Virus record (IMG/VR): IMGVR_UViG_3300008952_000003
Location: 96,001 to 160,000 of that record
Direction: 5' to 3' (one strand)
Length of the DNA stretch: 64,000 nucleotides
DNA from: a virus
The notes below the pieces were generated by a model. That model saw only the letters and a list, made by a program, of their open reading frames with translations. It was not told where the DNA came from and did not search any database. The translations under genes were made by a program, and so were the position numbers. Positions 4,437 through 19,986 of the stretch are shown here, in pieces (within the stretch, counting starts at the first letter, position 1; each line of letters starts with the position of its first letter).

Positions 4437-6176
4437 ATGTCTATTTTAAATAAATTAACTGAAGGTATCGTTCGACGCGATCTTTCTAAAGAAGGTGCCG
4501 CTCTTCTCTCCAAGTGGGAAAAGACTGGTCTTCTTGAGGGGATTTCTAATGAGCGTGCCAAACACGGAATGGCTTCGTTGCTCGAAAACCAAGCTAAAGA
4601 ACTTCTTCGCGAAGCCTCCACCATGGCAGGTGCCGGCGGCGGTGACGTTGAGGGTTTCGCTTCCGTAGCTTTCCCCATCGTCCGCCGCGTCTTCGGTGGT
4701 TTGATCGCAAACGATCTCGTCTCGGTTCAGCCGATGAGCTTGCCTTCTGGCCTCATCTTCTTCCTTGACTTCACACTTCACCCTCGTGATGGTGCCCGCC
4801 TTGATTCTGTTATTGGCGAGTCCGTTTACGGTGGTGGTGTTGTTGCTTCACAAATCACTGGTGGCGTCTCGCTCGCCGGTAACGAAGCAGAGCAGAGCTT
4901 TTATGCTCTGAACAATGGTTACTCCAGCCCGACTGGATCAGTTAGACCACTCGTACTAACTGATCTTGGAGCCGCTTCAGGTACTGTTGGCTCCGGCATT
5001 CCAGGTGACTGGACAGGTACGGGCCCCGGAGGCGCAGCCCTTGCTTCCCTCGGTGACCGCCTCGTCCGCTTCGATCCGGATATCGCTTCCGGCACTGCAG
5101 CATGCGTTGTTTCTGTGCCCCTCGCGACATTCACCGCTGGCCAGTTGAATATCAAGGATTATGTCACAATCACCCTTGATGATAACGCAGGCACAGTCGA
5201 TGCAACCCAGGTCCGCAGATTGACCCGCGACGATCCCAATACTGCAGCAAATATTCTGCTTGTAACATCAGATGGTACAAATACTATAACACTCTCTGGT
5301 ACTATGACCACTGCACCCAAAGGAGCTTCTTTTGTCATTGACGATGCGTTCCAGGCAGCAGGTGCTATTGGTTCTGTCGAAGGTATCGACGTCTGGGGTC
5401 TTGAGAATGAAGAACGTATCCCAGAAATCGACATCAAAGTCGATTCTGTGGCTGTGACCGCAAAGACCAAAAAGCTCAAAGCTAAGTGGACGCCTGAATT
5501 GGCACAAGACTTGAACGCTTATCATAATCTCGATGCAGAGGTTGAGTTGACTAGTATTCTGTCTGAGCACATTGCTCTTGAGATTGACCAAGAAATCTTG
5601 GAAGACCTTATCAAAGGTGCTACTGCTGAAACCCTGTTTTGGTCGCGACTTCCTGGAAAATTCGTGAATCGTGTCACTGGCGGCGCTCTGGATTCCGTAA
5701 CTAACGGCTTCCCAGACTTCACCGGCAACGTTAGCGAATGGTATGAGACCCTCGTCGAGACCATCAATGACGTCTCCGCACAGATCCACAGAAAGACACT
5801 TCGTGGTGGTGCCAACTTCATCGTTGTTTCGCCTGAAGTTGCAAACCTCCTCGAATTCACTGCTGGATTCCGTGGATCCGTCACTCACGATGATGATCGT
5901 GGGCAAGTTGGTGCAGTCAGAGTTGGCTCCTTGAGCAAGAAGTTTGACGTATATGTTGATCCTTACTTCCCGAGAAACGTTGTTCTCGCGGGTCGCAAAG
6001 GCTCCTCATTCCTCGAAAGTGGATACGTTTACGCTCCGTATGTGCCGCTCCAGATGACTCCTACCATTTTTGGTACTGAGGATTTCGTGCCGCGCAAAGG
6101 CGTCATGACTCGTTATGCCAAGAAAATGGTTCGTCCTGATATGTATGGACTTGTCATTGTTCAAGATCTTGTATAA
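4437..6176 (+). CDS. gp23: Major capsid protein (T4 gp23 family)
   Basis: Motifs VSVQPMSLPSGLIFFLD, KTKKLKAKWTPELAQDLNAYHNLDAEVELTSILSEHIALEIDQE, GYVYAPYVP, PRKGVMTRY. Confidence 0.95.
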   Translation: MSILNKLTEGIVRRDLSKEGAALLSKWEKTGLLEGISNERAKHGMASLLENQAKELLREASTMAGAGGGDVEGFASVAFPIVRRVFGGLIANDLVSVQPMSLPSGLIFFLDFTLHPRDGARLDSVIGESVYGGGVVASQITGGVSLAGNEAEQSFYALNNGYSSPTGSVRPLVLTDLGAASGTVGSGIPGDWTGTGPGGAALASLGDRLVRFDPDIASGTAACVVSVPLATFTAGQLNIKDYVTITLDDNAGTVDATQVRRLTRDDPNTAANILLVTSDGTNTITLSGTMTTAPKGASFVIDDAFQAAGAIGSVEGIDVWGLENEERIPEIDIKVDSVAVTAKTKKLKAKWTPELAQDLNAYHNLDAEVELTSILSEHIALEIDQEILEDLIKGATAETLFWSRLPGKFVNRVTGGALDSVTNGFPDFTGNVSEWYETLVETINDVSAQIHRKTLRGGANFIVVSPEVANLLEFTAGFRGSVTHDDDRGQVGAVRVGSLSKKFDVYVDPYFPRNVVLAGRKGSSFLESGYVYAPYVPLQMTPTIFGTEDFVPRKGVMTRYAKKMVRPDMYGLVIVQDLV

Positions 6177-6208: not shown

Positions 6209-6240
6209 GCCCTCCCACTTTTTGTGGGGGGGTTTTGTTT
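6209..6240 (+). terminator. Intrinsic terminator after MCP
   Basis: CCCTCCCAC-TTTTT-GTGGGGGGG stem followed by TTTTGTTT. Confidence 0.75.
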
Positions 6241-6248
6241 ATCTAGAA

Positions 6249-6256
6249 ACTACTTA
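6249..6256 (+). promoter_or_regulatory. Late motif variant ACTACTTA
   Basis: Sits between the terminator and the AGGAGG SD of the neck gene. Confidence 0.5.
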
Positions 6257-6274
6257 ATCTAGGAGGAAACAACT

Positions 6275-7543
6275 ATGGCGCTACCGACATTAACCCCCGC
6301 AAGCCAGATGAGTAAAGCGATCTTGCCCCCCACGGGCAATGTGAATAACGTTTCCGCCGCTGTACCATATGGAATGTACACCGGATCGGCTGATTTTCTG
6401 TCCGGCGCCTCTGATCAGGTTGCTTATACTTATAAGAAACTGGGCGGCGATGTTTTGGATATCGAATTGAAGGCGGCAAATGTATATGCGAATTATGAAG
6501 AGGCGGTCTTAGAATATAGCTACCTGATAAATCTACATCAGACAAGAAATGTTCTTTCCGATGTCCTCGGCCAGGCAACTGGAACATTCGATCACCATGG
6601 CGAATCAAAAACGGGCCCAGAAAACGTAAATTTAAAATATCCACGAGTCATGTTCGAATACGCCAGGAGAGTTGGTGATGGAATATCTTTTGAAGCTAAC
6701 GTTGGTGGAACTATTCCGATATACTCGGCCTCCTTTAAATTAAAGGAAAATCAGCAGGACTACAATTTGCAATCAATAATCTCATCCTCAGCCGCCTCTG
6801 GCGTAGATCCAACCGGAAATGCCGTTCCATTTGCTGGAATAGTGGGAGATAAAAGAGTTATTGTAAAGAAAGTTTATTATAAGACGCCTCACGCTATGTG
6901 GAGGTTTTTTGGCTATTTTGGGGGCCTCAATGTGGTTGGAAATCTAAATTATTATGGACAGTTTACAGATGATTCATCATTCGAATTGGTGCCGACTTGG
7001 CAAAACAAACTTCAGGCAATGGCCTTTGAAGATAACTTATGGACAAGACTATCTCATTATTCATATGAACTGAAAAATAACCGATTAAGAATATATCCGA
7101 TTCCTCAAATATTGAGTACTTATTTGTATATGTGGGTCGAATTTTCAGTTATACCAAATAGCTGGGATGAGTCACCAGACTATGATTCTGGTACAGATGG
7201 AATTAACAATTTAAATACGGTTCCTTTTGACAACTTACCTTATAAGAATATCAATGCCATCGGAAAGCAGTGGATCAGGCGCTTCGCTCTTGCACTCTCG
7301 AAGGAGACCCTGGGCCAGATAAGAGGAAAGTTTCAGACAATACCAATTCCAGGAGAATCAGTAACTCTCAATGCTACTGATTTGTTATCGCAGGCAAAGG
7401 ATGAGCAAGAAAAATTGAGAACAGAGTTGAAGGAGATTATGGATCAACTGACATATGTGGAGATGGCAAAAAGTGATGCTGAGAAGGTCGAAGCAGTGGG
7501 ATCAATTCAGAAAACAATCCCAAGGCTGATATATCAAGGATAA
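6275..7543 (+). CDS. Neck / head-completion protein (T4 gp13-like)
   Basis: Directly follows the MCP. C-terminal WIRRFALALSKETLGQIRGKF..IP.PG..V.LN...L...A..E matches gp13-like adaptors. Confidence 0.65.
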   Translation: MALPTLTPASQMSKAILPPTGNVNNVSAAVPYGMYTGSADFLSGASDQVAYTYKKLGGDVLDIELKAANVYANYEEAVLEYSYLINLHQTRNVLSDVLGQATGTFDHHGESKTGPENVNLKYPRVMFEYARRVGDGISFEANVGGTIPIYSASFKLKENQQDYNLQSIISSSAASGVDPTGNAVPFAGIVGDKRVIVKKVYYKTPHAMWRFFGYFGGLNVVGNLNYYGQFTDDSSFELVPTWQNKLQAMAFEDNLWTRLSHYSYELKNNRLRIYPIPQILSTYLYMWVEFSVIPNSWDESPDYDSGTDGINNLNTVPFDNLPYKNINAIGKQWIRRFALALSKETLGQIRGKFQTIPIPGESVTLNATDLLSQAKDEQEKLRTELKEIMDQLTYVEMAKSDAEKVEAVGSIQKTIPRLIYQG

Positions 7544-7546
7544 AAC

Positions 7547-8422
7547 ATGAGCAGTGAAAAAGAAAAGTTTCAGGGTTTTCGTCCTTATTTTAAGGAAGAC
7601 CTCTTAGATGACAGTCGAGTTCCATTGAAGGAGATCTCCCTGATGCCATCAACAGTGGAAACTATTGATCTGGCCCTTTTTGATTGGGTTAGTGAAACAA
7701 TGGATTTATATTGCACGACCAATGAGGGATGGAAGAAAGTTCCTATTATATGGTCGATGCCCGAGAGATCATTTCAGATAAAAGACAATAAAGATTTGAG
7801 AAATTCTAATAATATCTTCACGCTCCCCGTGATATCAATCGAGAGAAAATCTTTAATAAAGGATCCAAGCATGAAAGGCGTTGCATGGGCCCATTTACCA
7901 CAATATAATGATCCTCGCGGAGGAACTATAGAGGTATCCAGGAGAATTCAGCAAGATAAGACGTCGAACTTTGCTAATGCCACATCGCAAAGAAAGTTTA
8001 AACAGCAAAATTTCCCATTTAATAACAAGAAAGTAGTCTACGAAACGGTCACAATGCCAATTCCCACATATGTGGTAGCAACTTATTCTTTGGTCATTAG
8101 CACTGAATATCAGCAACAAATGAACGAGATTTTTACTCCATTTTTAACGACCACTGGACAAATTAACAATTTCTTTATACATAGAGACGGGCACAAGTTC
8201 GAAGGATTCATTCAGAATGATCCATCTCTGGATAACAATTTATCAGACTTAGCAGAAAAAGAAAGAAAGTTTAAAACTACGATTGATTTAAAAGTATTGG
8301 GGTATTTGTTGAGCGCCGGCAAGAACGACGAACGCCCCAAAATTACGATCAGGGAGAATGCGGTAGAGGTTCGTATGCCGAGAGAGAGAGTTATATTTGG
8401 GGATAAAAAGGAATATAAATAA
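7547..8422 (+). CDS. Neck / tail-terminator-like virion protein (gp15-like)
   Basis: Lies between two neck genes; LPVISIER...Y...I..EYQQQMNEI pattern. Assignment mainly by synteny. Confidence 0.5.
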   Translation: MSSEKEKFQGFRPYFKEDLLDDSRVPLKEISLMPSTVETIDLALFDWVSETMDLYCTTNEGWKKVPIIWSMPERSFQIKDNKDLRNSNNIFTLPVISIERKSLIKDPSMKGVAWAHLPQYNDPRGGTIEVSRRIQQDKTSNFANATSQRKFKQQNFPFNNKKVVYETVTMPIPTYVVATYSLVISTEYQQQMNEIFTPFLTTTGQINNFFIHRDGHKFEGFIQNDPSLDNNLSDLAEKERKFKTTIDLKVLGYLLSAGKNDERPKITIRENAVEVRMPRERVIFGDKKEYK

Positions 8423-9255
8423 TGGCGGATGATGAAAAAAAGTGGAGCAGACCGTCGAACCCGCCACCGCCTCTTTTTTTGGGCGAGAGCGAAAGAAACT
8501 TAGTTAAGCAAGTTAACGATGAACTGATAGAGCGAGTCATCGGCCAGGCTATCACTTACCTCCCTATTTCCATGGAGAGGACAAATTTTCATCCACTTTA
8601 CGGCGAAGCGATAGAAAAAAGTTTCATGCCCCCAGTTAGAGTCTACGCGCTTGTGGAATTTCCGGGAATAACCACAACAACTGATCACTATGGGTTGGAT
8701 AAGGAATATCCAATAACGGTTAGATTTCACGAAAGAAGGCTTTTTGAAGATCAGGATTTGTACATCCGAGAAGGTGATTATATTCAATATGGAACATCAT
8801 TTTTTGAAATTGTATCTCTGAAGGAGGACCGCCAGCTTTTTGGCCAGGTTGAACATCTTTTCCAGATCGAGGCCAAATGTATAAAGACCAGAAAAGGACT
8901 CATAGATCTGGATGTGCTCCCACCTGAGACGATTTCTGCAATCATTGAAAGTTCGGACTCTGAATCTGCATCAACCTCTGGCGGCGGCCCATCATCAACA
9001 CCCACCCAGGTCGTGAGAGTGTGCTATGTGAATGATGCTACAGTGCTCCTAGCGGCAGATACGTCGCTCAATGGGTTTCTGGGCGTGGGAGAATTGTCAC
9101 TTACCACCGCAGCAGTATATGAAGACGGCCTGCGTCAAAAATTAACAGGACTCCCGGCAACTGGTGATTATTATATCGATGATGGCACCTTGTATAGTGT
9201 TATGGATATTGAGATCGACCAACGTGTTTTATTGGAGGTCTTGACTTTGGTATGA
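8422..9255 (+). CDS. Neck protein (T4 gp14-like) with appended C-terminal domain
   Basis: ELIERVIGQAITYLP...HPLYGEA...F..P resembles the gp14 N-terminus. Ser/Gly linker then an extra ~80-aa domain. Confidence 0.65.
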   Translation: MADDEKKWSRPSNPPPPLFLGESERNLVKQVNDELIERVIGQAITYLPISMERTNFHPLYGEAIEKSFMPPVRVYALVEFPGITTTTDHYGLDKEYPITVRFHERRLFEDQDLYIREGDYIQYGTSFFEIVSLKEDRQLFGQVEHLFQIEAKCIKTRKGLIDLDVLPPETISAIIESSDSESASTSGGGPSSTPTQVVRVCYVNDATVLLAADTSLNGFLGVGELSLTTAAVYEDGLRQKLTGLPATGDYYIDDGTLYSVMDIEIDQRVLLEVLTLV

Positions 9256-10460
9256 GTACTTTTCGTGAACATAAATCAGTTGCAGACCGGTCGGCATCGG
9301 ACAGGAAGAGACACAAACATAAGATCGAGAAAGCACTCCGAGAGGGAATCAAGGATGTAGTCGCCGATGAATCCATTATCGGCCAGGACGGCAAAAAGAG
9401 AATAAAGATTCCAGTAAAAGGAATCAAGGAATATCAATTTATATATGGTGAGAATAAAGACAATAATAAAGCCGGCTCAGCCGGCGATAAACAAGTCAAA
9501 AAGGGTCAAATTTTAAGAAAAAAGCCACGAAAGGGAAAAGGCAAAGCCCCCGGTAAGAAAGGCAGTGACGAGCCGGGAGAAGAATATTACGAAGTAGAAA
9601 TAACTCTAGAAGAGTTGGCAGAATATTTATTTGATAATTTGGATTTGCCTGATTTACAAAAAAAGAAGTTTAGGTTTATTAAAGATAAAAAACTCAAAAG
9701 ACGCGGCTACCGAAAGAAGGGAATCAGAACTAGACTATCGAAGAAAGAAACGATAAAAAGAAAGATAAGAAGAAAAAAGAGAGCCATAGCTTCCGGAGCC
9801 TTTGATCCCGAGGGTGAAGAGAGATTCCCATTCCACCAGGATGACTTGAAATATAAACATATGAAAATAAAGAATGTTGAGAATAGCTCAGCAGTCGTCT
9901 TCTTTCTTATGGATGTATCAGGGTCTATGGACAAAAATAAGAAATATTTAGCACGAAGTTTTTATTTCCTACTGTATCAGTTCTTGAGATATCGATATGA
10001 GAATATTGATGTGGTTTTTATATCTCATTCAACAGAAGCTAAGGAAGTTGGCGAATCGGAATTCTTTGAAAGGGCCACTTCCGGAGGAACTCTAATGTCT
10101 TCAGCCCTCCAGATGGAAAAAGACATCATAGAGAAAAGATATCATCCGTCTTCATGGAATATTTATACTTTTTATTGCGGCGACGGAGAAAATTGGACCA
10201 TTGATAATGCAAAATCAATAGACTTGATAAAGTCGTTGGCAGAGGTTAATCAAATGGTGTGCTATGCAGAAATTAATCCGTTCTTCGCTTCCGGGTCAGA
10301 TAATGATACATTTTTTGTGTTACGCCCGGAAAATGACCCTAATAGTATTTGGTCACGCTTAGGAGTACTTGAAGGTGGGAACATAAAGATGGTAAGAATG
10401 GCCACTCCCGAAGATATCTGGCCATCTTTTCAGAAACTGTTTGGGGGTGATATTTCATGA
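9252..10460 (+). CDS. yeaH: YeaH/YhbH family (DUF444) VWA protein
   Basis: DRKRHKHKIEKALRE...KRIKIPVKGIKEYQF N-terminus, EITLEELAEYLF..L.LP.L, MIDAS DVSGSM, GGT, DGENW. Confidence 0.92.
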   Translation: MSTFREHKSVADRSASDRKRHKHKIEKALREGIKDVVADESIIGQDGKKRIKIPVKGIKEYQFIYGENKDNNKAGSAGDKQVKKGQILRKKPRKGKGKAPGKKGSDEPGEEYYEVEITLEELAEYLFDNLDLPDLQKKKFRFIKDKKLKRRGYRKKGIRTRLSKKETIKRKIRRKKRAIASGAFDPEGEERFPFHQDDLKYKHMKIKNVENSSAVVFFLMDVSGSMDKNKKYLARSFYFLLYQFLRYRYENIDVVFISHSTEAKEVGESEFFERATSGGTLMSSALQMEKDIIEKRYHPSSWNIYTFYCGDGENWTIDNAKSIDLIKSLAEVNQMVCYAEINPFFASGSDNDTFFVLRPENDPNSIWSRLGVLEGGNIKMVRMATPEDIWPSFQKLFGGDIS

Positions 10461-11758
10461 GGGACTGGACTGTAAAAGAATTACAAAAATGGGATAAAGA
10501 AATTTGCAAAATAGCAAAAGAAAAATATGATCTTGATTGGTTCCCAATAGAATATGAGATATTGGATTATCATGAGATGTTGAGTTCTATGGCGTACAGT
10601 GGCCTGCCGACTCACTATCGACATTGGTCATTCGGAAAAGCGTTCGAGAGGACCTCTACTCGCTACAACTTGGGAATGGAGGGTCTGCCATACGAGATGA
10701 TCATTAATAGCGATCCTAGCATTGCCTATTTGATGCTTGAGAATCCAATGAGTATACATTTACTAACAATGGCACACTGTGTGGGTCATTCTGATTTTTT
10801 TAAAAATAATCGCATGTTTAAAGATACGGATCCTGCAAATATCATATCTAAATTTAAATCAGCATCAAAAAGAGTAAGGGATTATATCGAAGATCCAAGT
10901 ATTGGAATTGATAAAGTAGAGGCAATGTTGGATGCATGCCACTCAATACAGTATCAAGTACAAAGGACTCCTGGAATAATAAGAGATGCGGATACTGACA
11001 AAAAAGAAACAGAAAATAATAGTAAAAAAATAATAAATGAATTATTTCATTTCGAAAACTTGAAGGATTATAATTTGCTTGGCTTCATAAAAGAGAACTC
11101 TCGCAATTTGGAGGACTGGCAAAGAGATTTGGTGGGGATGGTTGAGAGGAGGTCTCAATATTTTATTCCACAAGCGAAAACAAAGATCATGAACGAAGGC
11201 TGGGCAGTCACAATTCATGAAAAGATCATGAACGATTTAAAACTACCAGACAAATATCAAATAGCTTTTTTGAAATCGCATAATCAAGTTGTGAGGCCGG
11301 TAGTTGGCAGAATTAATCCATATCACCTTGGATATAGCATGTTCAAGAAGATAGAGAAGCAGCGCGGATTTGAGGAGTGTAAGCTGGTTCGAGAGACGCA
11401 TGACGACGAGGCTTTTATAAGGAAATACTTAGATGAAGAATTGTGCAGAGAGCTAAATCTATTCAGTTATTCCTACAATAGACTGGGAAGAAAATACTCA
11501 ATTAGTGATATTTCTGACAAAGAAGGGTGGAAAAGCGTGAGAGACGCCCTAATTAGCAATGTGGGACTTAACAGCGTGCCCGTTGTTTATGTCGATAAGT
11601 TTAATAAGAAAATGAATATCCTTTATTTGAAACACGAGCATGACGGCAGAGATCTGGAGATCAAATATGCAAACAAGGTGTATGATCATATTAGATTTTT
11701 GTGGGATGATGATATAATATTTACTTCCATTTTGGAAGGTGAACTATGGGAATTTTAA
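10457..11758 (+). CDS. spoVR: SpoVR / YcgB family protein
   Basis: GLP.HYRHWSFGK, GLPYEMIINSDP, AHCVGHSDFFKNN, PQAKTKIMNEGWA, NPYHLG. Confidence 0.93.
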   Translation: MRDWTVKELQKWDKEICKIAKEKYDLDWFPIEYEILDYHEMLSSMAYSGLPTHYRHWSFGKAFERTSTRYNLGMEGLPYEMIINSDPSIAYLMLENPMSIHLLTMAHCVGHSDFFKNNRMFKDTDPANIISKFKSASKRVRDYIEDPSIGIDKVEAMLDACHSIQYQVQRTPGIIRDADTDKKETENNSKKIINELFHFENLKDYNLLGFIKENSRNLEDWQRDLVGMVERRSQYFIPQAKTKIMNEGWAVTIHEKIMNDLKLPDKYQIAFLKSHNQVVRPVVGRINPYHLGYSMFKKIEKQRGFEECKLVRETHDDEAFIRKYLDEELCRELNLFSYSYNRLGRKYSISDISDKEGWKSVRDALISNVGLNSVPVVYVDKFNKKMNILYLKHEHDGRDLEIKYANKVYDHIRFLWDDDIIFTSILEGELWEF

Positions 11759-11759
11759 G

Positions 11760-13694
11760 ATGACAAAAACAAATGAATTTTTAGATATCGTTGAGAAGAG
11801 AAGCAAGGAAAAAAAGAGAAGTAAGTTTTCTGGTGCTTTTTCCGACTATTTGGATTTGGTGGAAGAAGACAGAGGAATTTCCATCTTGGCTCACAGAAGG
11901 CTATATGATACAATAAAATCCTACGGAATAACAAGAATGACGCCAGATGACGGCCGCTGCGCAAATCTATTTAATGGCGAAAAAATAAGAACCTACGACT
12001 ATTTTCAGTCCAATTTCTTTGGTATGGAGAGGTCCTTGGCTAAAATTATGAGATATTTGCACTCTGCGGCCATGCGAGGCGAGGAGAGCAAGCAAGTTCT
12101 TCTTCTGCTGGGCCCAGTTGGGGCTGGAAAATCTGCTCTAATCGAACATATCAAACGCGCTTTGGAGTCTGCAGGCTCATTTTATCAAATAGGTGGTTGT
12201 CCGATTCAAGAGGAGCCGCTACATTTGGTTCCGAGGAGCTTGAGGGAGGAATTTAAGAATATTTATGGGATCTCGATTGAGGGAGATTTGTGTCCCGTCT
12301 GTCGACATAATTTGCTAAATGAGTACGACGGTGATTATTTAAACATGCCAGTGGTTGAGACGACTTTCTCAATAAGGGGTCGCAGAGGTATCGGAGTTGT
12401 TCCGCCGATGGACGCAAATACTCAAGATACCAGCATCTTGATAGGCTCTGAGGATATTTCTAAGTTAGATTTGTATCCCGAAGACGACCCGAGAGCCCTG
12501 AGTTTTAATGGGGCCTTTAATGTCGGAAATCGAGGGATTGTTGAGTTTGTAGAGGTATTCAAAAATGAGATAGAATTTCTCCACACCATGATCACAGCAA
12601 CGCAAGAGAAGGCTATTCCAAGCCCCGGAAAGGGCGCCATGATTTATTTCGATGGGGTTATATTAGCTCACTGCAATGAGGCAGAATGGAATAAGTTTAA
12701 ATCAGAGAACACCAATGAGGCTATTCTAGATAGAATTGTTAGAGTGAATGTTCCATATTGCCTTGAGGTCACAGAAGAACAGAAGATATATCAAAAAATG
12801 CTCGATGAGTCTGATTTTGATGCACATATTGCACCACACACGCTTGAAATTGCAGCAATGTTCGCTGTACTATCCCGTCTAAAGATCTCCAACAAGGTTG
12901 ATCCCATTACAAAGATGAAGATTTACAATGGGGAGGAAATTGTTGAGAAGGGATATATTAAGAAAATCGATATTAATGATCTCAGAGAAGAGGCGAGAGA
13001 TGAGGGAATGACTGGCCTCTCAACTAGATTCATAATGAAATCAATCGACGCCGCTTTGGCCGATTCGGATAGAAATATGGTTACTCCTATATCAATTCGA
13101 GATGCTCTGGTGAAACAAGTCAAAGAACAAGTTGTCGTCGAAGAGCTAAGAGAAAAGTATCTATCATTTCTCCAGAAAGAGCTTCACGATGAATATTTGA
13201 GAATACTAGAAAAAGAAATAACCAAAGCTTTTGTTTCTGCGTATAAAGAGCAGGCTGAATCACTCTTTGACAATTATCTTGATCATGCTGAAGCGTATGT
13301 CAACGCCACAAAGGTGAAGGATAACATCACCGGAGAGGAGATGGTCGCTGATGAGGAATTTTTGTGCTCCATTGAAGAGCAAATTGGTATTGTCGGCTCG
13401 GCACGAGAAAACTTCAGAGCAGATATAACTGCTTATATGTTTGCCAAGTTGAGAAGAAAAGAGAAAATTGACTGGAGAGCATACGGCCCGCTTAAAGAAG
13501 CAATCGAGAACAAACTATTGGATTCGGTGAGAGACATATCCAGAATTGTGACTAAATCAAAGTCCAGAGACAATAAGCAGAAAAAGAAATACAATGAGAT
13601 GGTCAAGACTCTCATTGAGGACTATGGATATAGCGAAGATTCTGCAAATGAAATTATTAAATATGCCTCGAATAATCTCTGGCGCGATAGCTAA
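11760..13694 (+). CDS. prkA: PrkA / YeaG family AAA+ protein (serine kinase/ATPase)
   Basis: Walker A GPVGAGKS, FNGAFNVGNRGIVEFVEVFK, AHCNEAEW, NEAILDRI..V.VPYCL. Start ATG 11760 preferred over GTG 11739. Confidence 0.93.
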   Translation: MTKTNEFLDIVEKRSKEKKRSKFSGAFSDYLDLVEEDRGISILAHRRLYDTIKSYGITRMTPDDGRCANLFNGEKIRTYDYFQSNFFGMERSLAKIMRYLHSAAMRGEESKQVLLLLGPVGAGKSALIEHIKRALESAGSFYQIGGCPIQEEPLHLVPRSLREEFKNIYGISIEGDLCPVCRHNLLNEYDGDYLNMPVVETTFSIRGRRGIGVVPPMDANTQDTSILIGSEDISKLDLYPEDDPRALSFNGAFNVGNRGIVEFVEVFKNEIEFLHTMITATQEKAIPSPGKGAMIYFDGVILAHCNEAEWNKFKSENTNEAILDRIVRVNVPYCLEVTEEQKIYQKMLDESDFDAHIAPHTLEIAAMFAVLSRLKISNKVDPITKMKIYNGEEIVEKGYIKKIDINDLREEARDEGMTGLSTRFIMKSIDAALADSDRNMVTPISIRDALVKQVKEQVVVEELREKYLSFLQKELHDEYLRILEKEITKAFVSAYKEQAESLFDNYLDHAEAYVNATKVKDNITGEEMVADEEFLCSIEEQIGIVGSARENFRADITAYMFAKLRRKEKIDWRAYGPLKEAIENKLLDSVRDISRIVTKSKSRDNKQKKKYNEMVKTLIEDYGYSEDSANEIIKYASNNLWRDS

Positions 13695-13721
13695 GATATT
13701 TTAAAAAATAGTATTTAAAAT

Positions 13722-13757
13722 AAGCCCCTTATTTCATTTAGAAAAGGGGCTTCTTTG
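13722..13757 (+). terminator. Terminator-like hairpin after prkA
   Basis: AAGCCCCTT...AAGGGGCTT inverted repeat followed by CTTT. Confidence 0.65.
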
Positions 13758-13889
13758 TGTCTTTTCGATATCGGACTCTCTATGTATTCCCGGACAAGGA
13801 TATAAATCACTCTCGTCCCTGGTTTCTTTAACAATGTTTATCGAAACTGGCATATTTTAATTTCAAAACAATAAGGAGAAAATAACAAT

Positions 13890-15020
13890 ATGGCTAAAAC
13901 AAGAATTAATGTCCGTCAGGTCGACCTGGAACTTGCAGGTGGAGCCTCGGACTATGAAACAATGGCAGAAGCAGTCGCCGCAGAGGGCGCAGCCCTCGTT
14001 GGTAAGCTGGTTCCTGCTAAGTTTGACCCAAAATATTTGGGTGTTAGTCTTTCTGTCGCCGATTATGACGGTGCAGCATCTGACTATACAATCGTAAACA
14101 AGGGAGTACTGACCTCCCTGTCAGCCTCAATCACGGCTACCACAGACCTCCACATGAGCTACCTGAACGCCGATTATAATGCCCTCCTGACGGCTTCGGC
14201 TGAACGTGCAGCACTTCAGGCTGATATTGATCAGAACGAAGCAGACGCAGACGCAGCAATCGCAGCACTTCAAGCTGACGTTGATCAGAACGAAACAGAC
14301 GGCGATACCGATCGCGCAGCAATTCGCTCTGAATTCGCAGCAGCAGATGCAATCCAGTGGAAGAACGTGCTAGGCGCCGTAGGCGCAGTTCAAGCTGACG
14401 TTGATCAGAACGAAACAGACGGCGATACCGATCGCGCAGCAATTCGCTCTGAATTCGCAGCAGCAGATACAGCAATTCTGCTCCAAATCGCTACGAACCT
14501 AACAAACGGTACCGCAGCCCTCGCAGCAGTTCAAGCTGACGTTGACGGTAACGAAGCAGACGCTGACGCAGCAGACGCAGTTCTCCAGGGTCAGATTACA
14601 TCTAACGATGCCGACATCGCTACGAACGCCGCCGACATCGCAACAGAGACAGCACGCGCTCTTGCAGCAGAAGCAGTTAATGCTGGCTTGATTAGTGCAG
14701 AAGCGACTCGCGCTACTGCAGCAGAAGGTGTACTCACCACAGATGTGTTGGAACTCAACGCTGATGTCCTCGCACTTCACGGAAGACACTTCAGAGCAAG
14801 TAGTGTTGTAGTTGCAGGAGGCGCCCATGGTGTTTCTGTTTCTCCAGCAGACGCAGGCTCGTTGCAAGTATTTGTTAACGGTCTACTTAAAGTGGCTGGA
14901 GACGATTACACTGTAACTGCAGACGGAAACGGTTCTGTTACTGACGTTAGTGTTCTTGGTTGTGAAGCAGGTGATGATGTCACCGTCATGGGTCAAGGAT
15001 ACGTGTCTCTAACATCGTAA
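13890..15020 (+). CDS. Fibrous coiled-coil virion protein (whisker/head or tail fibre-like)
   Basis: Ala/Asp-rich heptad-like repeats (LQADVDQNE...), C-terminal VFVNGLLKVAGDDYTV domain, strong AAGGAG SD, own terminator. Confidence 0.55.
   Translation: MAKTRINVRQVDLELAGGASDYETMAEAVAAEGAALVGKLVPAKFDPKYLGVSLSVADYDGAASDYTIVNKGVLTSLSASITATTDLHMSYLNADYNALLTASAERAALQADIDQNEADADAAIAALQADVDQNETDGDTDRAAIRSEFAAADAIQWKNVLGAVGAVQADVDQNETDGDTDRAAIRSEFAAADTAILLQIATNLTNGTAALAAVQADVDGNEADADAADAVLQGQITSNDADIATNAADIATETARALAAEAVNAGLISAEATRATAAEGVLTTDVLELNADVLALHGRHFRASSVVVAGGAHGVSVSPADAGSLQVFVNGLLKVAGDDYTVTADGNGSVTDVSVLGCEAGDDVTVMGQGYVSLTS
14269..14468 (+). repeat. 80-bp exact direct repeat (14269-14348 and 14389-14468), period 120 nt, in frame
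   Basis: Read directly; encodes QADVDQNETDGDTDRAAIRSEFAAAD twice. Confidence 0.95.
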
Positions 15021-15065
15021 TCTAAATCATTAATGTGATATTCCAATTTTATTGAAATATTGCTT

Positions 15066-15099
15066 GGCCCTCCCAAATTAATGGGAGGGCCTTTTTTTT
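15066..15099 (+). terminator. Strong intrinsic terminator
   Basis: GGCCCTCCCA-AATTAA-TGGGAGGGCC followed by T8. Confidence 0.9.
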
Positions 15100-15102
15100 A
15101 AA

Positions 15103-15110
15103 ACTATTTA
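15103..15110 (+). promoter_or_regulatory. Putative late promoter motif ACTATTTA
   Basis: Immediately after the terminator, upstream of ORF 15141. Confidence 0.55.
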
Positions 15111-15140
15111 AAATTGATTGCATGTCAAGGAGTCACAAAC

Positions 15141-15515
15141 ATGTTCGAGAAAATAAGAAACTTTTTTAACCCTGCTAGTAAGGCTGAATCGGAAGAAGAA
15201 GTCTCCGAAGAGTTAATCCAGGAGCCCAAGCCAGAAATACCAGATACGCTTGAGGTCCCATGGGAAGACATAGTTCAATTGAAGAATATCGATATCGCCA
15301 GAAAGAAGGTCTATAGCCAGTTAAAAGAGTTATTATATAATGCGAAGCTTGCTGAAAGAAACGCTTTTCAGACCTTGGACGCCTATCGAGACATCGAGAA
15401 AGAAAAGCTAGAAAAACTGCATGAAAAATACAAAATCCCAGCAGATGGGAGCTACGACTTCGAATTACCAGAGGTAACGGGCAAGCGAGGATACTTTAAG
15501 AAAAGAAATAAGTAG
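15141..15515 (+). CDS. Hypothetical protein
   Basis: ATG 15141 with AAGGAG SD preferred over TTG 15114. Confidence 0.6.
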   Translation: MFEKIRNFFNPASKAESEEEVSEELIQEPKPEIPDTLEVPWEDIVQLKNIDIARKKVYSQLKELLYNAKLAERNAFQTLDAYRDIEKEKLEKLHEKYKIPADGSYDFELPEVTGKRGYFKKRNK

Positions 15516-15557
15516 ACTCATTCTAGAATATTTAATATGACTTTGAAAAAATAATAA

Positions 15558-15565
15558 ACTATTTA
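15558..15565 (+). promoter_or_regulatory. Putative late promoter motif ACTATTTA
   Basis: Upstream of the sheath gene. Confidence 0.6.
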
Positions 15566-15605
15566 TAGTATAACAGGATTTTATTTCCCGTAGGAGAAAA
15601 TTTAA

Positions 15606-18461
15606 ATGTCAGTCAAAAAGTTCAAATTTGTATCGCCAGGTGTGTTTTTAAGCGAAGTTGACAATTCGCAACTACCTGCTGCAGAGCGAGAAATCGGACC
15701 ACTTCTTGTAGGCCGAACCCAATTCGGACCAGCCATGAGGCCCGTCACGGTCCAGTCTTTTTCGGAATATGTAGAGACTTTTGGAAATCCAGTGCCAGGG
15801 TCATCCGGCGGGGATGTCTGGAGAGATGGTAACCAGCAGGGCCCCACCTATGCGGCTTACGCAGCCCAAGCTTATCTTAAGGCGGACGTGGGCCCAGTGA
15901 CAATGGTTCGTTTGTTGGGTTCGGACAATCCAGACTTCATCGGAAGTCCGGTCGCATCAAATCGCGCCGCCGCAGGTTGGGCGACAGAAGGCACAATTGA
16001 CCCAGGAAACGACGGTGGCGCCTATGCCCTGGTTGTTTGCAATAGTTCTTCTACACCCACTGGAGAAGTCCAAACAGCAACGATAGGGGCTATCTGGTAC
16101 ATCAATGACGGCACAATATCCCTAAGCGGAACTCTCGCCGGCCCTGGAGGGGCAACCAGCCAAACTGGCTCATATGCACTCTTCAGAAACAATGGGTCAG
16201 CATTCAATCCAGAATATACAGCTATCATAAAGGACTCGGGAGGAAATATAGTCCACAAGACTGCATTCAATGGAGATCCTGATTCTGCCAAGTATATTCG
16301 CAATGTTTTTAATACAAATCCACAACTGTTAAACTCGGATGTGGTGGACACAAGTGCCTTTTCTCATGGAGAGGATCTATATTGGCTTGGTGAAACATTC
16401 GAGGGTGCTTTATCAACAAAGAATTTAAGTAATCCGGACGCAATGATCGTTGCTCTAGGAAATGATATAGGAACTGTCAGCAGATCCGATATGAAAGAGA
16501 ACTACCGAGAGGCATCTACTGGCTGGTTCATTTCTCAGGATTTAACAACAGATACCGGATCTTACAGCCCCAGAACTCAAGACACTCTCTTCAGAATTGT
16601 CGCGAGAGATGCGGGCGAGAGCATACAAAATACTTTAAAAATATCAATACAAAATGTCAAAGCATCTACGAGTCTTCTTGATCAATATGGAACCTTCGAT
16701 GTTGTCGTGAGAAGAGCCAACGATTCGGACAATGTTGTAAAGTATGTTGAAAGATATACCAATCTGTCCCTCAATCCTGCTTCTGATAATTACATCGGTG
16801 TCAAGATAGGTGACAAATACACAGAATATGATGATGACCAAAAGAGACTTAGAGAATATGGCGAATATAATAATCAATCAAAATACATTCGAGTGGACAT
16901 TAGAGATGACGTAGCATCAGGTCTAACTGATGCAAAATATCTTCCATTTGGAGTGCAGGGCCCCAGAATCCCCGCCCCCGTTACTATGAGTAGCGGCTCC
17001 ACAACTATGACCGTGCCGCTAGGTCTCGGGTCAATAATAGTCACCGGATCATTAGCGGCCGATACGAAGGCATCAGCAACATCGATGTATGATGCTGGGG
17101 GATACATCCAACATACCTGTTCTGTGGAGTGGCCCCTGGTTACCTTAAGACACTCCGCTTCTGACGGGGGGATTGGAAATCCAAAGGACGCATTCTTTGG
17201 TGCCCAATCATCAACACAGGTCTCCCTCAATGACAATATTAACTTCGATCAAGGCTACGGCGACCTTCTACGGGCTTTTCCAACAGCCCTCGAAGGTACT
17301 ATGGCAGCCGGCTGGGTATTCTCTCTGGATGATGTAGTCATCAGTGGATCTGCCACAGCATTTTATCAAGAAAACTCCAGAGTAAACGGCAATTCGGCAA
17401 CAGCCCAGGGTGACTACAAGTCTATCTTGGAGGCTGGATATGATAGTTTTACTGCTCCTCTTTATGGTGGGTTTGATGGATTAAACATCACGGAAATTGA
17501 GCCATTTAGAAATAGCGCAATGACTTCCGCAGATAATGAGTTCACCAACTATGCTTTCAACTCAATACAACAGGCGCTTAATAGCGTGGCAGACCCAGAG
17601 GTGGCTGAATACAACCTCCTCGCTGTTCCTGGATTGACGAATACAAAGTTAACACAGCACATGATCAACACTTGTGAAGACCGCGCAGACGCGCTAGCAG
17701 TTGTTGACTTAGGGAGTGTTTATGAGCCCTTTACTGAGACAACCGACTCCTTTAAAGAAAGAATAAGCACGCCAAAGGATGCCGTAGACGCACTTAGGTT
17801 GAGGCAAATTGATTCTTCATACGCTTGCACCTATTTTCCATGGGTCCAGGTTAGGGATACGATCGCCTCACGCCTCTTGTGGGTACCACCTTCAGTAATC
17901 GGCCTTGGAGTCATGGCTAACTCGGAAGCAAAATCAGAAGTCTGGTTCGCCCCGGCTGGCTTTAATCGCGGAGGACTCACAGAGGGATCTGCAGGCCTCC
18001 CAGTCGCGGGATTGACATATAAGTTGACTTCGAAAGATAGGGATCTTCTCTACGATGCGAGCGTTAATCCAATCGCCTCATTTCCTTCCGAAGGAATCGT
18101 GGTCTTTGGACAAAAGACTATGCAAGTTCAGAGATCTGCACTCGATAGAATCAATGTCAGAAGACTAATGATTTTCATCAAGAAGCAGGTTTCCAGAATC
18201 TCTTCAGGTCTCTTGTTTGATCAAAATGTTAGCGTGACGTGGGAAAGGTTCTTGAATCAAGTCAACCCTCTGTTGGCTAGTATCCAATCCAGACTCGGCT
18301 TAACTGAGTTTAAGGTGGTCTTGGATGAAACAACTACGACCCCGGATTTGATAGATCAAAACATCATGTATGCCAAGATATTCTTGAAGCCCGCAAGAGC
18401 TATTGAATTCATCGCAGTTGATTTTGTGATCACAAGATCCGGCGCATCTTTTGATGATTAA
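15606..18461 (+). CDS. gp18: Tail sheath protein (T4 gp18-like)
   Basis: N-terminal FVSPGVFLSEVD; C-terminal WFAPAGFNRG, RDLLYDASVNPIA, LDRINVRRL, KIFLKPARAIEFIAVDF. Confidence 0.93.
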   Translation: MSVKKFKFVSPGVFLSEVDNSQLPAAEREIGPLLVGRTQFGPAMRPVTVQSFSEYVETFGNPVPGSSGGDVWRDGNQQGPTYAAYAAQAYLKADVGPVTMVRLLGSDNPDFIGSPVASNRAAAGWATEGTIDPGNDGGAYALVVCNSSSTPTGEVQTATIGAIWYINDGTISLSGTLAGPGGATSQTGSYALFRNNGSAFNPEYTAIIKDSGGNIVHKTAFNGDPDSAKYIRNVFNTNPQLLNSDVVDTSAFSHGEDLYWLGETFEGALSTKNLSNPDAMIVALGNDIGTVSRSDMKENYREASTGWFISQDLTTDTGSYSPRTQDTLFRIVARDAGESIQNTLKISIQNVKASTSLLDQYGTFDVVVRRANDSDNVVKYVERYTNLSLNPASDNYIGVKIGDKYTEYDDDQKRLREYGEYNNQSKYIRVDIRDDVASGLTDAKYLPFGVQGPRIPAPVTMSSGSTTMTVPLGLGSIIVTGSLAADTKASATSMYDAGGYIQHTCSVEWPLVTLRHSASDGGIGNPKDAFFGAQSSTQVSLNDNINFDQGYGDLLRAFPTALEGTMAAGWVFSLDDVVISGSATAFYQENSRVNGNSATAQGDYKSILEAGYDSFTAPLYGGFDGLNITEIEPFRNSAMTSADNEFTNYAFNSIQQALNSVADPEVAEYNLLAVPGLTNTKLTQHMINTCEDRADALAVVDLGSVYEPFTETTDSFKERISTPKDAVDALRLRQIDSSYACTYFPWVQVRDTIASRLLWVPPSVIGLGVMANSEAKSEVWFAPAGFNRGGLTEGSAGLPVAGLTYKLTSKDRDLLYDASVNPIASFPSEGIVVFGQKTMQVQRSALDRINVRRLMIFIKKQVSRISSGLLFDQNVSVTWERFLNQVNPLLASIQSRLGLTEFKVVLDETTTTPDLIDQNIMYAKIFLKPARAIEFIAVDFVITRSGASFDD

Positions 18462-18518: not shown

Positions 18519-19103
18519 ATGGCATTCTGGACAGACGCACAAAATAAAGATCCAAAAAGAGCATTTAGATTTATGGTCCAAATTGGCGGCATGGAAAATG
18601 GCGCTACTTGGTATGCTAAGGCAGTGACGAAGCCAAAAATAACTGTTGAAGAGGCAGATCACACTTTTCTAAATCACAAATTTTACTATCCTGGGAGAAC
18701 AAGCTGGGATTCCGTAGAAATTACCCTGGTCGACCCCGTTAGTCCGGACGCCGCTGCAAATACTGCAGCCATCATTCGTGCTTCTGGCTATACTCCACCA
18801 AAAGATGTCAATGACGTTACCACTATGTCAAAAGCAGCAGCAGTTAAAGCTCTCAACGGCGTAGTGATCAAACAGATTGATTCTGTTGGCGAGACTCTTG
18901 AAAAATGGACTCTTTGGAATGCTTTTCTTACTAACGTTACTTATGGTGATCTGACTTATGATGAAGATGGCCTTACGGAAATCACAATGACAGTCCGCTT
19001 TGATTGGGCCGTACTAGAGACACTCAACGAATCAAAAACTGGAAGAACCACACCTGAAGGCGCTTCAGCCGATGGAAAAACATTCTTCAAACCAGGAAGC
19101 TGA
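18519..19103 (+). CDS. gp19: Tail tube protein (T4 gp19-like)
   Basis: DPKRAFRFMVQI, KFYYPGRTSWDSVEITLVDP, WTLWNAF...V.YGDL.YD...TEITMTVRFDWA; follows the sheath. Confidence 0.88.
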   Translation: MAFWTDAQNKDPKRAFRFMVQIGGMENGATWYAKAVTKPKITVEEADHTFLNHKFYYPGRTSWDSVEITLVDPVSPDAAANTAAIIRASGYTPPKDVNDVTTMSKAAAVKALNGVVIKQIDSVGETLEKWTLWNAFLTNVTYGDLTYDEDGLTEITMTVRFDWAVLETLNESKTGRTTPEGASADGKTFFKPGS

Positions 19104-19128: not shown

Positions 19129-19986
19129 TTGGCTAGAAATAAGGACCGCCTTGGTCTGGGAAAAGAAGTAGAGAGCAGTGATCCCCTCGCATCTCCATCC
19201 CCGACAAACTCAGATGGCCCGCTCATATTTGAGACTCCATCCGAATTCGTCGAATTGCCGACAAAGGGGAGGTTTTATTCAGAAAACCATCCGCTTTATA
19301 ACCAAGAGCATATTGAGATAAAGCATATGACCGCAAGAGAGGAGGATATTCTATCTTCTAAATCTCTCTTGAAAAAGGGAATAGCTTTAGATAGATTTGT
19401 TCAGAGTGTGATAAAGGATAAGAGGATAAAAGTAGAGAATCTCTATATTGGAGATAGAAACGCTATTCTTATCGCAGCCAGGGTTACTGGCTATGGTGAG
19501 GAGTATGCAACTCAGATTACGTGCCCATCCTGTATGAGTGTCGAGAGACATTCTTTTGATCTGGACCAGAGGACCCTGACTGAGGGGGTTATCTCTGAGG
19601 GTTCTGACGCAGAATTTACAGATACGGGAACAATAACTACGAGATTGCCTATTTTTAAGGTCAAGACTGAACTCCGACTTCTAACTGTGAAAGAGGAAAA
19701 TTATTTAAGTCGCTTGACAAATAACAAAAAAGATAAGAATCTTCCTGATACGAAATTAACTGACATGTTGAAGATGATCATTGTATCTGTTGAGGGAAAA
19801 GACGATTCAGCCACAATTGCTTCTCTGGTGGATAACCTTCCAGCTAGAGATTCTAAACACTTGAGAGATATCTACACTAAAGCTATCCCAAATGTTAGCA
19901 TGAGACAGAGTTTTGAATGCTCTTCATGTTCTTACGAAGGTGAAACGGAGGTTCCGCTTAATGCGGAGTTCTTTTGGCCTAAGTAA
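19129..19986 (+). CDS. Baseplate hub / tail assembly chaperone (T4 gp26-like)
   Basis: VELPTKGRFY, MTAREEDIL, GDRNAIL, two CxxC pairs (CPSC, CSSC); ends FFWPK. TTG start with GAGG SD. Confidence 0.8.
   Translation: MARNKDRLGLGKEVESSDPLASPSPTNSDGPLIFETPSEFVELPTKGRFYSENHPLYNQEHIEIKHMTAREEDILSSKSLLKKGIALDRFVQSVIKDKRIKVENLYIGDRNAILIAARVTGYGEEYATQITCPSCMSVERHSFDLDQRTLTEGVISEGSDAEFTDTGTITTRLPIFKVKTELRLLTVKEENYLSRLTNNKKDKNLPDTKLTDMLKMIIVSVEGKDDSATIASLVDNLPARDSKHLRDIYTKAIPNVSMRQSFECSSCSYEGETEVPLNAEFFWPK

Follow-up and report, generated by a model that had tools for sequence, protein, structure and literature searches.

Why should a phage carry a complete set of three genes that belong, in bacteria, to a module driven by starvation or sporulation sigma factors? 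This question is raised by a cassette encoding DUF444 (YeaH/YhbH), SpoVR (YcgB) and PrkA (YeaG, renamed SpdA in E. coli), which occupies positions 9252-13694 of a 64,000-nt stretch of DNA, hereafter called the window. The window comprises bases 96001-160000 of the 193,157-bp IMG/VR virus record IMGVR_UViG_3300008952_000003, a metagenome assembly with a CheckV completeness of 100%. The phage is uncultured, marine and a distant relative of T4. The cellular trio is widespread and poorly understood, and YeaG has been linked to bulk proteolysis under starvation only recently. The reading that we consider probable, if only just, is that the trio is the form which the cellular PrkA/YeaG(SpdA)-YeaH/YhbH-SpoVR/YcgB module has taken in this phage lineage; it would drive the turnover of host proteins and, in this phage, would be made late.

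A preliminary description of the locus, made from the sequence alone, took the cassette for an undescribed system. This part has to be withdrawn. Phage copies have been annotated since phiYS40 in 2006 (as 'SpoVR' and 'serine kinase'), and the trio is found in the Thermus phages phiYS40, TMA and Lalka, in Ralstonia phage RsoM2USA, for which it is also listed, and in several huge phages. PHROG families exist for all three proteins. In a literature search, no paper dealing with the three phage genes as one unit was found. The phage-borne trio is already known, and this locus adds a well-supported example with an unusually clear operon context.

The three genes and their transcription unit

The first gene of the cassette (9252-10460, plus strand, 402 aa) encodes a DUF444 protein with a VWA domain (PF04285, E=2.5e-109, 366.6 bits), and the second (10457-11758, plus strand, 433 aa) a SpoVR protein covering profile positions 1-405 of 407 (PF04293, E=1.2e-118, 396.9 bits). 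The third gene (11760-13694, plus strand) encodes the AAA+ protein PrkA, in which both Pfam domains of the family are matched at full length, AAA_PrkA (PF08298, E=5.5e-144, 480 bits) and the C-terminal domain (PF06798, E=5.7e-79, 266 bits). All three genes are complete, adjacent and co-oriented, with 4-nt ATGA overlaps read from the sequence at 9252-9255 and 10457-10460 and a gap of 1 nt between SpoVR and PrkA. The longest open reading frame (ORF) of PrkA, 11739-13694, has 651 aa and starts at a GTG at 11739, overlapping SpoVR. Most homologues measure 644-647 aa and therefore the ATG at 11760, 1 nt past the SpoVR stop, is the most likely start.

The integrity of the motifs was judged on alignments of viral and bacterial homologues, about 160 in number. 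In PrkA, the Walker A motif, GPVGAGKS, is intact and is invariant in 11 diverse sequences; the motif NRGIVEFVE is present as well. The Walker A lysine, K108 in B. subtilis, is required for the ATPase and protease activity of PrkA (PMC9512850). In DUF444, the metal ion-dependent adhesion site (MIDAS) is intact (D221-x-S223-x-S225, T280 and D311) and kept in at least 97% of 159 sequences. SpoVR retains H107 and H111 in HCVGHSDFFKNN, NEGWA at 246-250, H254 and H275. The earlier claim of three intact genes with diagnostic motifs is therefore borne out by the Pfam matches and by the motifs themselves, and neither the Walker A nor the MIDAS residues are inactivated.

Compared with the NCBIfam equivalog models, all three proteins score below the cut-off: PrkA reaches 408.9 of 576 bits (NF011999), SpoVR 276.2 of 679 bits (NF008737) and DUF444 383.6 of 467.95 bits (TIGR02877, spore_yhbH), the last being still the best-scoring model and of the sporulation YhbH type. 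Judged by these scores, PrkA is a member of the family, yet not an equivalog of the proteobacterial model NF011999. Against the PDB, PrkA matches entry 9xip with E=1.1e-99 over residues 25-645, and PDB sequence searches with DUF444 and SpoVR gave no relative. The entries 9xip, 9xiq and 9xir (30 chains in 3 entries) are described as a 692-aa 'serine protein kinase' of the PrkA family; a literature search for PrkA cryo-EM found nothing relevant.

The cassette forms the end of a putative transcription unit that starts behind the major capsid gene. Its upstream edge is an intrinsic terminator at 6209-6233 on the plus strand (10-pair stem with 7 GC pairs, followed by TTTGTTT), next to which a copy of the motif CTAYTTAW, CTACTTAA, is located at 6250-6257 on the same strand. 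Six genes follow between 6275 and 13694, spaced by no more than 3 nt. The unit ends 3' of PrkA in a plus-strand hairpin terminator at 13722-13750, consisting of a 9-bp stem (AAGCCCCTT...AAGGGGCTT) and a T-rich run; with its loop of 13 nt, it was not listed by the terminator scanner. Hairpins of the same form and of different sequence occur 3' of PrkA in 7 related contigs, and in 10 of 11 related contigs the neck gene either overlaps DUF444 or is separated from it by no more than 1 nt.

The motif CTAYTTAW (core AACTATTTA) is a candidate for the late promoter element of this phage. It occurs in 18 copies against 9.3 expected, a number reached by none of 100 shuffles, and 16 of the copies are on the plus strand, which carries all large ORFs of the window. 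Nine plus-strand copies are situated in spacers directly 5' of structural genes (2011, 2900, 3406, 6250, 15104, 15559, 18476, 20200 and 22879). The motif precedes neither DUF444 nor SpoVR, and its sole copy within the unit (11967) lies inside PrkA. Taken together, the terminators, the placement of CTAYTTAW, the short gaps, and the recurring junction and hairpin make the wiring of the trio into the neck operon of this lineage well supported at the level of sequence features. The ATGA overlaps, the terminator at 13722 and the common transcript with the neck genes had all been proposed before; the overlaps and the terminator stand as described, and the common transcript is supported by these features.

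A scan for sigma-70 promoters gave weak matches at most. The T4 late promoter TATAAATA is enriched as well (11 copies, 3 expected) and was set aside, since copies occur on both strands and several of those on the minus strand are merely the reverse of CTATTTAT sites. One T4-type TATAAATA is present at 8414-8421, directly 5' of the ATG of the 8422-9255 gene and across a stop/start overlap, where its position is probably coincidental.

Distribution, origin and conservation of the cassette

Since the genes are of a cellular type and come from a metagenome assembly, an assembly chimera, bacterial contamination or a recent, functionless capture had to be considered. However, the layout of the window with the same junctions recurs in 10-11 independent metagenome contigs from different samples, which rules out the chimera that had been envisaged at 9250 or 13700. 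In addition, 152 IMG/VR contigs match exact peptides of the window protein and 277 match two family-wide peptides, so that relatives are present in no fewer than 277 viral contigs. A search of 5.8 billion proteins yielded more than 7,800 matches at E<=1e-10; the 120 best have at least 75% identity, and many come from Tara and other marine samples. With the long stem and deep internal diversity of the viral clade and the strong purifying selection described below, we regard an artefact or idle passenger as highly improbable.

The gene order DUF444-SpoVR-PrkA is found in every one of 80 fetched IMG/VR loci that reach far enough upstream. The capsid-neck and sheath flanks of the window are common to about 17 of these loci. 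In the remaining 63, the cassette is located among non-structural genes in several contexts, with flanks that include a DNA helicase, a trypsin-like peptidase, PIN-PhoH, glycosyltransferases, a PALP enzyme and a weakly GroEL-like protein; PIN-PhoH lies a few genes from the trio in other phage lineages. Four contigs assigned to metagenome-assembled genomes (MAGs) show the viral gene order. The GTDB MAG contigs L085, L086 and L087 (labelled Luteolibacter, Legionellales and Halobacteriovorax) have the trio in viral order between helicase and PhoH flanks as in the IMG/VR phage contigs. Because these flanks are shared with phages and the sequences are nested among viral ones, they probably derive from phages and were mis-binned into bacterial MAGs.

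Among deposited phages, 17 records contain a PrkA relative, all with about 31-34% identity: Thermus phages, Ralstonia phage RsoM2USA, four huge uncultured phages and one Enterobacter record. The last, Enterobacter phage LAU1 (MN688132.1, 30.8 kb), opens with a YeaG-annotated gene at bases 58-1878 and may represent bacterial DNA flanking a prophage, not a phage gene. The Thermus phages phiYS40, TMA, phiLo, MN1 and Lalka8/27a/27b share the order of the trio (vWA-SpoVR-PrkA), which adjoins morphogenesis genes, but their proteins have 24-34% identity to those of the window and are placed on very long branches relative to the marine clade, and in phiYS40 SpoVR and PrkA are separated by an additional gene. 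RsoM2USA carries a complete trio too (ORF30-28). Its genes show the bacterial order and group with E. coli YeaG, and an identity of 56% to Vibrio was reported by its authors; the RsoM2USA trio is an independent, more recent capture.

Cellular relatives were sought in a scan of one genome per GTDB species. The best are 76 Bacillota loci from Clostridia and Negativicutes, with identities of 58-63% for PrkA, about 43% for DUF444 and about 42% for SpoVR. The Bacillota module, including B. subtilis prkA-yhbH and spoVR, has the same three Pfam families and key motifs, and in the clostridial and negativicute operons likewise three adjacent, co-oriented genes. In contrast, the phage order is rotated with respect to PrkA-DUF444-SpoVR, which is present in all 76 bacterial loci, and the phage sequences form a separate clade and remain under the equivalog cut-offs. 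The two would also differ in expression, the phage cassette being driven from a structural operon and the cellular one by a starvation or sporulation sigma factor.

In maximum-likelihood trees, the sequences in viral order form one clade, with Shimodaira-Hasegawa-like approximate likelihood ratio test (SH-aLRT) values of 100 for PrkA, 93 for DUF444 and 98 for SpoVR, and the nearest neighbours of the window are identical in all three trees. The PrkA clade has a long stem (0.77) and deep internal diversity; E. coli and RsoM2USA fall on a very long branch. When 1.84 billion representatives were searched exhaustively, three near clusters (49-55% identity) emerged before identities dropped to 41% or less, the only named cluster among the nearest being Epulonipiscium. 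Trees, gene orders, identities, cluster search and equivalog scores together argue that the cassette was taken up once from a Bacillota-type ancestor, rotated and then diversified within phages, an event to which the Thermus phage trios, of the same gene order, may or may not belong. A recent transfer from one bacterial genus was rejected, as the distance of the viral clade (53-64%) is about the same for every sampled member of the Bacillota. Thus the proteins do not nest within one bacterial clade devoid of phage homologues, an outcome against which the preliminary description had warned.

With respect to the closest relative, L005, the nonsynonymous divergence (dN) of PrkA is 0.049, the lowest of eight genes; the values are 0.078 for SpoVR, 0.097 for the capsid gene and 0.106 for DUF444. 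Synonymous divergence (dS) is saturated. PrkA remains 83-92% identical across relatives, and the sheath and neck genes fall to about 50%. These comparisons demonstrate strong purifying selection on the trio; its joint inheritance as one cassette in a phage-only clade is shown by the gene order and the trees. A large clade of abundant ocean phages keeps the trio more tightly conserved than its capsid gene, which argues that the three proteins act as one unit that is useful without the host regulators. The phage trio also offers compact and diverse sequences for biochemical and structural work.

Possible functions of the cassette

Indications of function come from the cellular homologues. In six bacteria, yeaG, yeaH and ycgB show cofitness (10.1101/072470). 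Under carbon starvation, E. coli needs YeaG to degrade its cytoplasmic proteins globally and in a largely non-specific way, which yields amino acids and ATP (PMC13684143). PrkA of B. subtilis degrades casein in an ATP- and Walker A-dependent manner and was found to have no kinase activity (PMC9512850). The E. coli trio belongs to the same families and has the same motifs, and it serves as the functional model for starvation-induced global proteolysis; however, it shows about 29-33% identity to the phage proteins, and its genes are split into two operons.

Transferred to the phage, this model suggests the following course. The neck-gene transcript would carry the cassette at its tail end, leading to late synthesis, and PrkA would function as a Lon-like AAA+ ATPase, as the cellular homologues suggest. 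Together with its VWA/MIDAS partner and the zincin-like SpoVR, it would accomplish the ATP-dependent turnover of host cytoplasmic proteins independently of the starvation signals of the host. The outcome would be the release of amino acids and energy for virion synthesis, or the removal of particular host proteins. The AAA+ region of PrkA is weakly similar to that of Lon protease (E about 1e-3), but phage PrkA lacks the Lon protease domain. MoxR-type chaperone pairs likewise combine an AAA+ ATPase with a VWA/MIDAS partner, a likeness in architecture only: Pfam searches of the trio gave no MoxR-family match, just AAA_PrkA and weak, sub-threshold hits to AAA_16 and AAA_5.

The same homologues have also been interpreted in terms of signalling, and the preliminary description had thought of host dormancy. 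In such a case, a kinase-type pathway would block or trigger the stationary-phase, dormancy or sporulation programme of the host so that the infection can be finished. YeaG has been reported as a kinase, the trio has been proposed to form one signalling pathway with species-specific outputs, prkA and spoVR mutants show sporulation defects, and the nearest cellular relatives are spore-forming Bacillota. On the other hand, the B. subtilis enzyme showed no kinase activity, the phages of the clade are marine and T4-like and give no hint of a host that forms spores, and a module expressed late is poorly timed for preventing dormancy. We consider this explanation rather unlikely; in view of the recent work on YeaG and PrkA, the dormancy idea as originally worded does not stand and is better restated as protein turnover.

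A further proposal was that the AAA+/VWA/metallo-protein trio acts as a chaperone or remodeller in the assembly of the neck, head or tail. The position of the cassette inside the neck operon of this lineage, between neck genes and the sheath gene, suits such a role, as does its location in Thermus phages, with portal/minor head genes on one side and terminase genes on the other. Yet the non-structural flanks in 63 of the 80 related contigs speak against it, and in Thermus phage Lalka27a the genes 12-14 (vWA, SpoVR-like and PrkA-like) belong to the middle class and possess their own promoter, P12-M, whereas those for the portal, the minor head protein and TerL next to them are late (10.64898/2026.04.20.719267). 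Neither gp12-14 nor the portal protein appears in the virion table of Lalka27a, which is hence uninformative on this point. Moreover, the cellular homologues operate without any virion, and the cassette borders a variable hot-spot, as is typical of accessory cargo. Because of the non-structural contexts in most relatives and the separate middle-class unit of Lalka27a, a dedicated part in virion assembly is disfavoured, and we rate it as distinctly improbable.

Turnover of host proteins by the trio, the interpretation preferred here, is in line with the PIN-PhoH, trypsin-like peptidase and metabolic genes adjoining the cassette in other phage lineages, and with its organization as a unit of its own in Lalka27a. 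Several points weigh against it. The role of the phage copies is deduced from their cellular homologues, and for these it is still disputed whether PrkA is itself a protease, a kinase or a regulator. The late co-transcription of the trio is likewise deduced from motifs. Its placement in the neck operon and the portal and terminase neighbours in Thermus phages could hint at a morphogenetic link. Finally, the canonical catalytic Glu of HExxH is absent from SpoVR, which has H-C-V-G-H, and the match of SpoVR to the zincin fold is middling for a helical protein.

This fold was assessed on an AlphaFold (AF2) model of the phage SpoVR with a predicted local distance difference test (pLDDT) score of 84.7. 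In VIA-align, zincins (M1, M3, M4, M32, M61 and LTA4H) make up nearly all of the 50 best rows, with Z of 6-11.2 over 170-215 residues at a root-mean-square deviation of 3.6-5, although helical models often reach such Z by chance. Foldseek against the PDB returned nothing at E<=1e-3. The motif H-C-V-G-H (H-A-Y-G-H in E. coli) keeps the His-x3-His spacing of zincins, and NEGWA resembles the third-ligand motif of M1 peptidases. The resemblance of the predicted SpoVR fold to zincin metallopeptidases is suggestive, not conclusive.

A bolder version, which we put forward tentatively and hold to be less probable than not, is that the cassette constitutes a self-contained, three-part ATP-dependent protease in which PrkA forms the unfoldase ring, the VWA/MIDAS protein serves as adaptor and the zincin-like SpoVR is the third subunit. 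Ocean T4-like phages would switch it on to obtain amino acids and ATP for virions from the host proteome, and in this lineage it would be hard-wired to late structural expression. If true, such a protease would be the protein-level counterpart of phage-driven recycling of host DNA. Recycling of the host proteome, if it occurs, would be a major and so far uncounted nitrogen and energy route for marine viruses. It would also correct the label attached to viral spoVR in virome studies: in a virome from an oxygen-minimum zone, this gene was reported to exceed all other 'sporulation' auxiliary genes in abundance and was read as sporulation-related (PMC8940887).

Neighbouring genes and relatives of the phage

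The surrounding genes are arranged as a structural block on the plus strand. The gp23-type major capsid gene (4437-6176) is followed by a neck-region gene at 6275-7543, which weakly matches the head-tail adaptor Ad2 (gp13-like; phrog_211, E=1.9e-11) and is kept in 11 related contigs. The next gene, 7547-8422, is a conserved member of the neck block (cluster c25, present in 12 loci); Pfam and PHROG searches with its product gave no match. The gene at 8422-9255, whose stop overlaps the start of DUF444, had been called gp14-like. Its protein has no Pfam match at E<=0.01 and no PHROG match, its AF2 model is poor (pLDDT 56) and too weak for a fold search, and tblastn against phages matched solely unannotated genes in Flavobacterium, Microcystis and huge phages. 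A feature search placed it near Atlas clusters that include PF11649, T4_neck-protein (score 0.92), a family carried by 11% of the cluster members. The gp14-like assignment is accordingly kept as a lead only.

Downstream of the cassette, the variable gene at 13890-15020 is located between PrkA and the sheath gene. Its homologues range from 376 to 2031 aa, it is absent from the related contigs L006 and L017, and structural comparison gave weak fibre-like rows; its earlier designation as a fibre gene is plausible but unproven. The stretch from PrkA to the sheath gene (13700-15600) is a hot-spot in the relatives L005, L009, L014, L006 and L017, varying from 0 (L006 and L017) to about 9 kb. A strong terminator at 15066-15091 and a small gene at 15114-15515 precede the genes for the tail sheath (15606-18461), the tail tube (18519-19103) and the baseplate hub (19129-19986).

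The nearest deposited relatives of the capsid protein belong to an uncultured huge phage, Flavobacterium phage immuto, Microcystis phage Mel-JY01 and Rhodothermus phage RM378. A megablast of the region against deposited phages gave no match, and a tRNA scan for a hint at the host found none. PADLOC models of known anti-phage defence systems did not match the trio or its neighbours at E<=0.01. The phage also encodes a PhoH-family protein outside the window (G000:C1:23688-24290, open frame of 446 aa), approximately 80 kb from the trio.

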